DNA of 64,000 nucleotides. Origin: Escherichia coli. GTDB lineage: Bacteria; Pseudomonadota; Gammaproteobacteria; Enterobacterales; Enterobacteriaceae. The stretch lies in assembly GCF_016903815.1 (NCBI RefSeq), contig NZ_CP069973.1; one strand, written 5' to 3'. Both the position numbers and the translations under genes were made by a program. The notes under the pieces were generated by a model that was not told the origin of the DNA, searched no databases, and worked only from the letters and a program-made list of their open reading frames with translations. Numbering within the stretch: position 1 is the first letter of the stretch; each line of letters starts with the position of its first letter. Shown here piece by piece: positions 18,062 to 19,882 of this stretch.

Positions 18062-18871
18062 ATGGAGGGACTGACAGTGGAATTTTCCGTATTAAGTAAC
18101 AATCTGAAAATGCCGATGATGGGATTTGGTGTTTTTCAGGTTACCGATAAAGACGTGTGCAAACAGTCAGTGCTGAATGCTATCCGCACGGGTTATCGAC
18201 TCATCGACACTGCAGCGGTATACGGTAATGAAGATGCCGTCGGTGAAGCCGTTCGTGAAGCCATATCTGAAGGTTTATGTACCCGAGAAGAGTTATTTAT
18301 AACGTCTAAATTGTGGGTGCAGGATATGTTGAATCAGGATACGGCAAAAGCAGGTATTGAAGCGTCATTAAAAAAATCGGGACTAGAATACTTCGACCTC
18401 TATTTATTGCACCAGGCTATGCGCGATTATTTCAGTGCGTGGCGTGCACTCGAAGATGCCTATGAAGAGGGCAAATTAAAAGCGATTGGGGTTTCCAATT
18501 TCTATCCTCATGTTCTGGCGAACTTTTGTGAAACGGTAAGAGTTAAACCGATGGTCAACCAGGTCGAGTTGCATCCCTATTTTGCCCAACCAGAGGCGCT
18601 GGCAACCATGAAGTATTATAACGTGCAGCCTGAAGCATGGGCTCCGTTAGGTGGTGGACGACATAAACCCTTTGAAAATAATCTGCTTCAGAGTATTGCA
18701 GATGCCCATCAAAAATCGATTTCTCAAGTCATTCTGCGTTGGAATATTCAACGGGGAGTGGTCGTTATTCCGAAATCGACACATCAACAGCGTATCGAAG
18801 AAAATTTTGCTATTTGGGATTTCTCACTGACAGAGAAAGAAATGGCGCAAATTAGTTCGCTTGATTGGTAA
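18062..18871 (+). pseudogene. Aldo-keto reductase gene with 3' end replaced by IS1 (last ~26 codons lost; W-stop supplied by the IS1 terminus)
   Basis: AKR motifs (LIDTAAVYGNE, LHQA, AIGVSNF); ORF ends ...ISSLDW at a TAA lying inside the IS1 left end; original reading frame resumes after the right-hand target duplication for 26 more codons. Confidence 0.6.
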
Positions 18872-18921
18872 TGCTGCCAACTTACTGATTTAGTGTATGA
18901 TGGTGATTTTAAGGTGCTTGC

Positions 18922-19197
18922 GTGGCTTCCATTTCCATCAGATGTCCTTCCTGCTCCGCTACTGAAGGCGTGGTGCGTAACGGCAAAAGCACTGCCGGAC
19001 ATCAGCGCTATCTCTGCTCTCATTGCCGTAAAACATGGCAACTACAGTTCACTTACACCGCCTCTCAGCCCGGTACGCACCAGAAAATCATTGATATGGC
19101 CATGAATGGCGTCGGATGTCGCGCCAGTGCACGCATTATGGGCGTTGGCCTCAACACGGTTTTACGTCACTTAAAAAACTCAGGCCGCAGTCGGTAA
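18922..19197 (+). CDS. insA: IS1 InsA
   Basis: 91-aa [46 protein letters not shown]... (zinc-finger InsA). Confidence 0.88.
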
Positions 19198-19619
19198 CCT
19201 CGCGCATACAACCGGGCAGTGATGTGATTGTCTGCGCTGAAATGGACGAACAGTGGGGCTACGTCGGTGCTAAATCACGTCAGCGCTGGCTGTTTTACGC
19301 GTATGACAGGATACGGAGGACGGTTGTGGCGCACGTCTTCGGTGAACGCACTCTGGCCACACTGGAGCGTCTTCTGAGCCTGCTGTCGGCCTTTGAGGTC
19401 GTGGTATGGATGACGGATGGCTGGCCGCTGTATGAATCACGCCTGAAGGGAAAGCTGCACGTTATCAGCAAGCGTTACACTCAGCGCATTGAGCGACATA
19501 ATCTGAATCTGAGACAACATCTGGCAAGGCTGGGACGGAAGTCACTGTCGTTCTCAAAATCGGTGGAGCTGCATGACAAGGTCATCGGGCATTATCTGAA
19601 CATAAAACACTATCAGTAA
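19116..19619 (+). CDS. insB: IS1 InsB (expressed as InsAB' transposase by -1 frameshift)
   Basis: 167-aa ORF overlapping the insA 3' end in the -1 frame; TTAAAAAAC slippery motif at about 19171-19179. Confidence 0.85.
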
Positions 19620-19882
19620 GTTGGAGTCATTACCCGCTTGATTTGGGTTATGTTGGGGAATCGGTAAAACATTTTAATCCTGAGTTTGTTCGTGGTTGTC
19701 TTGCTGTAAAAATACATGATTGATATTAATCATGTATTTTACCTGAGACGACAAGAATCTTTTAACAGGGGAGTGATATTGATCTTCACTCTGTCATATC
19801 TCCGGTAATATGGCGTCAGGCTTCATCATCAGAAAGGGGGCCTGACGCCTGAAAAGGTGAACAACAGACAGTGTTCGGATTA

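Follow-up and report, generated by a model that had tools for sequence, protein, structure and literature searches.

The window analysed in this study, a 64-kb segment of the E. coli chromosome, carries the gene order ecpC...fdeC-ykgA-like-AKR-rclCBA-rclR...prp-cod, in which AKR stands for an aldo-keto reductase gene. The AKR reading frame was located on the plus strand at 18077-18871 and comprises 263 native codons followed by a tryptophan codon and a TAA stop; Pfam (PF00248) and the PGAP annotation both identify it as an AKR. Its divergent upstream neighbour on the minus strand (16971-17828) encodes a Rob/AraC-type regulator with HTH and GyrI-like domains, a homologue of ykgA. On the downstream side, rclC (19883-20476, minus strand), the last gene of rclABC, is convergent with both the AKR gene and the insertion sequence that interrupts it. 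PGAP places the start of the AKR at GTG 18077, and an in-frame ATG at 18062 offers an alternative start. An exact look-up in a protein collection found neither the 269-aa (ATG 18062) nor the 253-aa start variant of the truncated frame, and returned the 264-aa form only.

Elsewhere in the window, a cluster that is not in K-12 lies between ykgR and fdeC (10163-12030 on the minus strand and 5720-10132), with adjacent AKRs of 283 and 329 aa and, in addition, genes for two LysR regulators, for an alpha/beta hydrolase and for an NADH-dependent flavin oxidoreductase; PDB entry 4mhb is similar to the 283-aa paralogue. The adjoining fdeC gene (eaeH, 12596-16846) is intact and encodes 1,416 aa, while both the sister strain 5283 and the O111:H8 strain described below have a frameshifted copy, and that of K-12 is interrupted by an IS3.

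The element that interrupts the AKR gene spans 18867-19634 on the plus strand and measures 768 bp, exactly the length of IS1; its identity to K-12 IS1F marks it as a complete IS1 of the IS1F type. It is bounded by imperfect inverted repeats of 23 nt that are 87% complementary, both read on the plus strand: the left terminal repeat (IRL, GGTAATGCTGCCAACTTACTGAT) at 18867-18889, which is also the source of the TAA stop of the AKR frame, and the right terminal repeat (IRR) at 19612-19634, recognized by its pairing with IRL. The transposase coding region (18922-19619, plus strand) is made up of insA (18922-19197, 91 aa) and an overlapping open insB' frame that extends to 19619. An A6C frameshift motif (TTAAAAAAC) begins at 19171, where a -1 shift would yield the InsAB' fusion of 232 aa. 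Both parts of the transposase are matched by the NCBIfam model transpos_IS1 (InsA with 89 bits, InsB with 147.9 bits), and PGAP labels the frame as 'IS1 family transposase, programmed frameshift' (WP_094106546.1). At the DNA level, the element shares 99.3% identity with K-12 IS1F and 91.1% with IS1A. All testable hallmarks of IS1 were thus found, namely the length, the inverted repeats, insA/insB' with the A6C motif, the 9-bp duplication described below and the identity to IS1F.

The IS1F copy of K-12 MG1655 (NC_000913.3 4518472-4519239) is alike in its 768 bp, its GGTAATG... ends and its insA/insB' organization with the A6C frameshift, but it differs from the window element at 5 bases and in genomic location. 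Moreover, insB7 of K-12 is annotated as a pseudogene, whereas both frames of the window element are open and PGAP treats it as an intact frameshifted transposase. Many 768-bp IS1 copies that are 100% identical to the window element were found in other E. coli genomes, strain 7/2 among them, and the 64 kb examined here contain a single IS1 copy.

A 9-bp direct repeat, CGCTTGATT, abuts both ends of the element, with its left copy at 18858-18866 and its right copy at 19635-19643; a search of both strands of the 64-kb window gave these 2 occurrences only. The two copies represent the target-site duplication, of which strain 7/2 has a single copy. The staggered 9-bp cut made upon entry of IS1 was repaired into the CGCTTGATT duplication. 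An earlier note on this DNA had proposed a complete 768-bp IS1 with a 9-bp direct repeat, transposed in place, and this was confirmed at the positions given here, with genomes carrying the empty site showing one repeat copy.

The insertion point falls in codon 264 of the 289-aa AKR gene (junction 18866|18867). At the junction, T18866 together with G18867 and G18868 forms a tryptophan codon (18866-18868), and the TAA that follows at 18869-18871 corresponds to bases 3-5 of IS1. The product is now 264 aa long, consisting of 263 native residues and the tryptophan, and ends in ...SSLDW; the earlier description of this ending, with the stop codon inside the IS1 terminus, is exact to the base. Excision of IS1 and one repeat copy in silico, joining 18866 to 19644, restores 26 aa, LGYVGESVKHFNPEFVRGCLAVKIHD, followed by TGA at 19721-19723. 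The predicted restoration of the frame for 26 codons was borne out, as the reconstructed 289-aa protein is identical to WP_021516948.1. The wording that IS1 has replaced the 3' end of the gene has to be corrected. The 80-nt remainder (19644-19723, plus strand), which encodes (L)GYVGESVKHFNPEFVRGCLAVKIHD, is intact and displaced by 777 bp; it begins with the final two bases of codon 264 and continues through 25 codons to the TGA. PGAP calls the two parts separately, the AKR as 'aldo/keto reductase, incomplete, missing C-terminus' and 19637-19723 as 'hypothetical protein, missing N-terminus'.

The empty site, for which a PCR survey of related strains had been suggested, was sought in complete genomes instead. 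A 120-nt probe over the uninterrupted junction, counted at ≥80% coverage, detected the uninterrupted site in 5,032 of the 5,426 complete E. coli genomes compared. A probe for the left AKR/IS1 junction was fully covered in only two of the 5,426, strains 2779 and 5283, both of which are blood isolates from Houston. Strain 7/2 (NZ_CP023820.1; human faeces, Sweden) possesses the intact 870-nt AKR gene that encodes WP_021516948.1 (289 aa). With IS1 and one repeat copy taken out, the window shows 0 mismatches to strain 7/2 over 7,343 nt and a single one over 63,223 nt, an agreement far beyond what chance would yield. Since only this one SNP then separates the window from strain 7/2, the insertion must be very recent. 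From the open transposase frames and this recency (1 SNP in 63 kb relative to the empty-site relative), we infer that the window copy of IS1 is transposition-competent.

The sole difference over the 63,223 nt is at position 54568 (G in the window, T in strain 7/2) in prpR and leads to a different PrpR protein accession. The window and strain 2779 (NZ_CP103521.1) likewise differ at one position, 3477 (T versus C), which is intergenic near ecpR. Further pseudogenes called by PGAP in the window are ykgE (~23767-24485) and ykgL (~4128-4353), both frameshifted, and codA (~62624-63907), which has an internal stop. As these three lesions are common to the empty-site strain 7/2, they predate the IS1 insertion.

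Insertion sequence copies are classic sources of misassembly and about a dozen IS1-like places occur in the genome, so that an assembly artefact, or homologous recombination between IS1 copies instead of transposition, had to be weighed. Against both stand the perfect 9-bp duplication and the colinear flanks, which equal those of the empty-site genome, and the same structure is common to two independent complete assemblies. In addition, the exact 264-aa truncated product is encoded on 15 public contigs, which stem from no fewer than 8 independent sequencing (SRA) runs. The junction was seen in SRR19165533, SRR19165535, SRR29280344, SRR30424407, SRR33768512, SRR33768523, SRR33939685 and SRR35574012. 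The junction contigs all stop 28 nt into the left repeat of IS1, as is expected of short-read assemblies at repeats, and the breaking of at least 8 independent short-read assemblies at one and the same junction speaks against an artefact in particular. Given the duplication, the colinear flanks and the independent assemblies, we rejected a recombination or assembly-artefact origin, the probability of which we regard as close to nil. On the preferred reading, an active-looking IS1 of the IS1F type entered codon 264 of a chromosomal AKR gene by transposition very recently, in one clinical E. coli sub-lineage. This sub-lineage has been sampled repeatedly, which is compatible with hitch-hiking and also with selection.

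The interrupted gene encodes a member of the aldo-keto reductase superfamily. The (beta/alpha)8 domain Aldo_ket_red (PF00248) was matched with an E value of 3.1e-42 over residues 23-262, and 188 AKR sequences in the PDB match the window AKR. Its identification with DkgA or DkgB was rejected, the scores of 235.4 and 163.5 bits lying below the respective NCBIfam cut-offs of 425 and 327. By these scores the protein appears to belong to a different, unnamed AKR subfamily and not to be one of the named 2,5-DKG reductases of E. coli. Among its closest solved relatives are TM1009 of Thermotoga maritima, deposited as '2,5-diketo-D-gluconic acid reductase' (PDB 1vp5; E 1e-85), and a 'putative aldo/keto reductase' (4mhb; E 8e-75). 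Both align with the window AKR end to end, the C-terminal motif H..PE.V included, although the proteins come from different organisms and all three are substrate-uncharacterized.

To judge what the insertion has separated from the protein, the reconstructed reading frame was aligned to intact homologues. Almost all of the best 120 homologues (from Enterobacter, Salmonella, Klebsiella, Kluyvera, Vibrio, Marinomonas and others) are 289 aa long. In an alignment of ten orthologues, the mean pairwise identity of the 26-residue tail was 88.5%, compared with 82.9% for the rest of the protein, and H273, P276, V279 and K286 are invariant even when the 45%-identical paralogue is included. The tail can also be aligned to the PDB sequences of 1vp5 (to query residue 284) and 4mhb. 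None of the best 120 is a natural homologue that ends at ..SLD; the shorter entries among them are labelled as partial or lie on short contigs. The absence of intact homologues that end at SSLD agrees with a tail whose conservation equals or exceeds that of the remaining protein and with orthologues that are almost all 289 aa long. The alignment that the earlier note had called for therefore shows the tail to be native and nearly invariant, and the homologues ending in ...SSLD that would have spoken against a truncation did not appear among these 120. The comparison with the paralogous AKR at 11179-12030 (minus strand; 283 aa, 45% identical to the window AKR) also held, since the paralogue has 25 aa after the equivalent ..ALD, about the length of the restored tail. 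A separate group of 328-329-aa homologues covers only 89-91% of the AKR query and may reflect other disruptions of the 3' end.

D44, Y49, K78 and H112 are invariant in the alignment and all lie upstream of the break, and the motif IPKS...R..EN is retained as well. We take these four residues to be the Asp-Tyr-Lys-His catalytic tetrad of AKRs and the motif to be that of cofactor binding. Since tetrad and cofactor-binding motif precede the break, and the Pfam domain match stops at residue 262, just ahead of it, the truncated AKR might still be a working enzyme, perhaps with an altered substrate range, so that the insertion would amount to a remodelling of the C terminus and not to a knockout. 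Very short C-terminal loops of 5-6 residues are functional in some AKRs (PMC9427786), and a barrel with tetrad and cofactor site could keep some activity. However, the C-terminal region known as loop C has, at the level of the family, a role in the substrate pocket, and its truncation lowered the activity of an AKR1C enzyme (PMC9427786). The window frame lacks a full-length loop C, the 26-aa tail having been split off by IS1. That this tail is conserved across genera at least as well as the barrel (88.5% versus 82.9%), and that nearly all orthologues among the best 120 possess it in full, with no homologue ending at ..SLD, likewise argues against a functional truncated form, which we consider unlikely. 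An AlphaFold2 model from an 11-sequence alignment reached a mean pLDDT of 73.9 and about 50 in the tail, values too weak to address tail packing. The truncated AKR is more plausibly a fresh pseudogene whose product, judged from its sequence, would be inactive or badly impaired on the native substrate.

The earlier note had also considered read-out from IS1 into rclC. As rclC is encoded on the minus strand, such read-out would be antisense at most. Two strong hairpins would stand in its way before rclC, and a search for a hybrid promoter at the junction found none, so that this part of the note is weak. The stop codon of rclC lies 248 bp from the right end of IS1. Between them, an AT-rich hairpin with a 13-bp stem extends over the native AKR stop codon (19710-19739; inverted repeat and folds), and a GC-rich hairpin, GGCGTCAGGC...GCCTGACGCC, was placed by folding at 19812-19849, between the 3' ends of the AKR gene and rclC. 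The segment 19700-19885 folds better than shuffled sequences on both strands, with z values of -5.6 and -5.0. Because this segment is strongly structured on both strands, transcripts of rclABC should end before reaching IS1. The hairpin at 19710-19739 is likely to serve as a terminator element between the convergent genes. This role is proposed from the folds, as the hairpins lack the canonical G+C stem with a T-run, and a consensus terminator scan of 17800-20600 gave 0 sites. Viewed as sequence, the AKR/rclC intergenic region shows a near-perfect AT-rich 16+16 palindrome over the AKR stop and a GC-rich hairpin with a stem of 10-13 bp. An Rfam scan of 16500-23000 at E ≤ 1 returned no known RNA; the AT-rich hairpin gave a chance miRNA-like match of 22.9 bits, compared with a gathering score of 55.

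These observations bear on the idea that selection favoured the insertion because of an effect on regulation, either through IS1 read-out antisense to rclC that modulates the reactive-chlorine operon, or through read-through from the AKR promoter that drives the transposase. IS1 and the AKR gene are co-oriented, so that AKR transcripts enter IS1, and the sub-lineage persists across several sequencing runs. Fusion promoters can, moreover, form at IS1 ends where the flank supplies a -10 element (PMC9330008). At the right junction, the best -35/-10 pair of an IS1-end/flank hybrid promoter reached only 6 of 12 matches and the consensus scan gave none. The convergent orientation of rclC leaves room for an antisense effect only, the two strong hairpins separate IS1 from rclC, and the AKR transcript of the intact locus already converges on rclC, so that the geometry is unchanged. 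Regulatory selection is accordingly regarded as highly improbable. With IS1 located 248 bp past the rclC stop and beyond both hairpins, rclABC is presumably unaffected by the insertion.

The IS1 insertion is not the only lesion that has befallen this gene in E. coli. At least 80% of the AKR gene was present in only 2,936 of the 5,426 complete genomes (54%), and about 2,100 complete genomes, those of K-12 and BL21 included, retain a remnant of only about 169 nt; decay of the gene has thus already affected some 46% of the complete genomes. The K-12 pseudogene ykgQ (b4631; NC_000913.3 317439-317567), located between ykgA and rclC, is a remnant of the same AKR and has also been inactivated. In contrast to the window allele, it goes back to two deletions within the gene (18093-18677 and 18727-18817 in window coordinates) and not to an insertion sequence, and it is shared by about 2,100 genomes compared with 2 for the IS1 allele. 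The second of these deletions is bounded by a 9-bp direct repeat, GATTTCTCA (18718-18726 and 18818-18826), which suggests that it may have come about by slippage or illegitimate recombination. A third allele was found in the O111:H8 strain 7-27 20A (NZ_CP077515.1; 2771-4792 of the compared locus), where IS1203 cuts the same AKR at the equivalent of window ~18844, about 22 bp to the 5' side of the IS1 insertion. This element belongs to the IS3 family and lies on the opposite strand, and the AKR tail and rclC have been deleted, whereas in the window nothing is deleted and the target duplication is present. In the literature, ykgQ is mentioned only incidentally in one paper, and we found no paper that discusses the locus or the insertion.

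The repeated and different inactivations of the AKR gene point to relaxed selection rather than adaptation. On the distribution of its alleles the gene appears to be expendable in E. coli, and we infer that the IS1 insertion is neutral or nearly so. An alternative is that the insertion was selected in a bloodstream-associated sub-lineage, either for a tail-less AKR with changed specificity or for IS1 antisense transcription that alters rclABC and thereby reactive-chlorine defence. We consider this very unlikely; if it were true, the locus would be a small example of IS-mediated within-host adaptation. As a whole, the data are best explained, with high probability, by a very recent insertion of IS1F that truncated an expendable AKR and so created a fresh pseudogene, neutral or nearly so, with rclABC unaffected.

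An insertion of this kind is already known, it is already captured as a pseudogene in the RefSeq/PGAP annotation, and it is a case of ordinary gene decay. Element, mechanism and protein are all of known kinds, and the case has little importance beyond bookkeeping. It adds one more independent inactivation of the AKR beside the ykgQ deletions and the IS1203 allele, and the AKR/IS1 junction at 18866|18867, which is specific to the lineage, could be used to recognize the sub-clone by PCR or k-mers. For the biology of E. coli, the locus provides a clean, datable example of IS1F that is probably still active in a contemporary clinical lineage.
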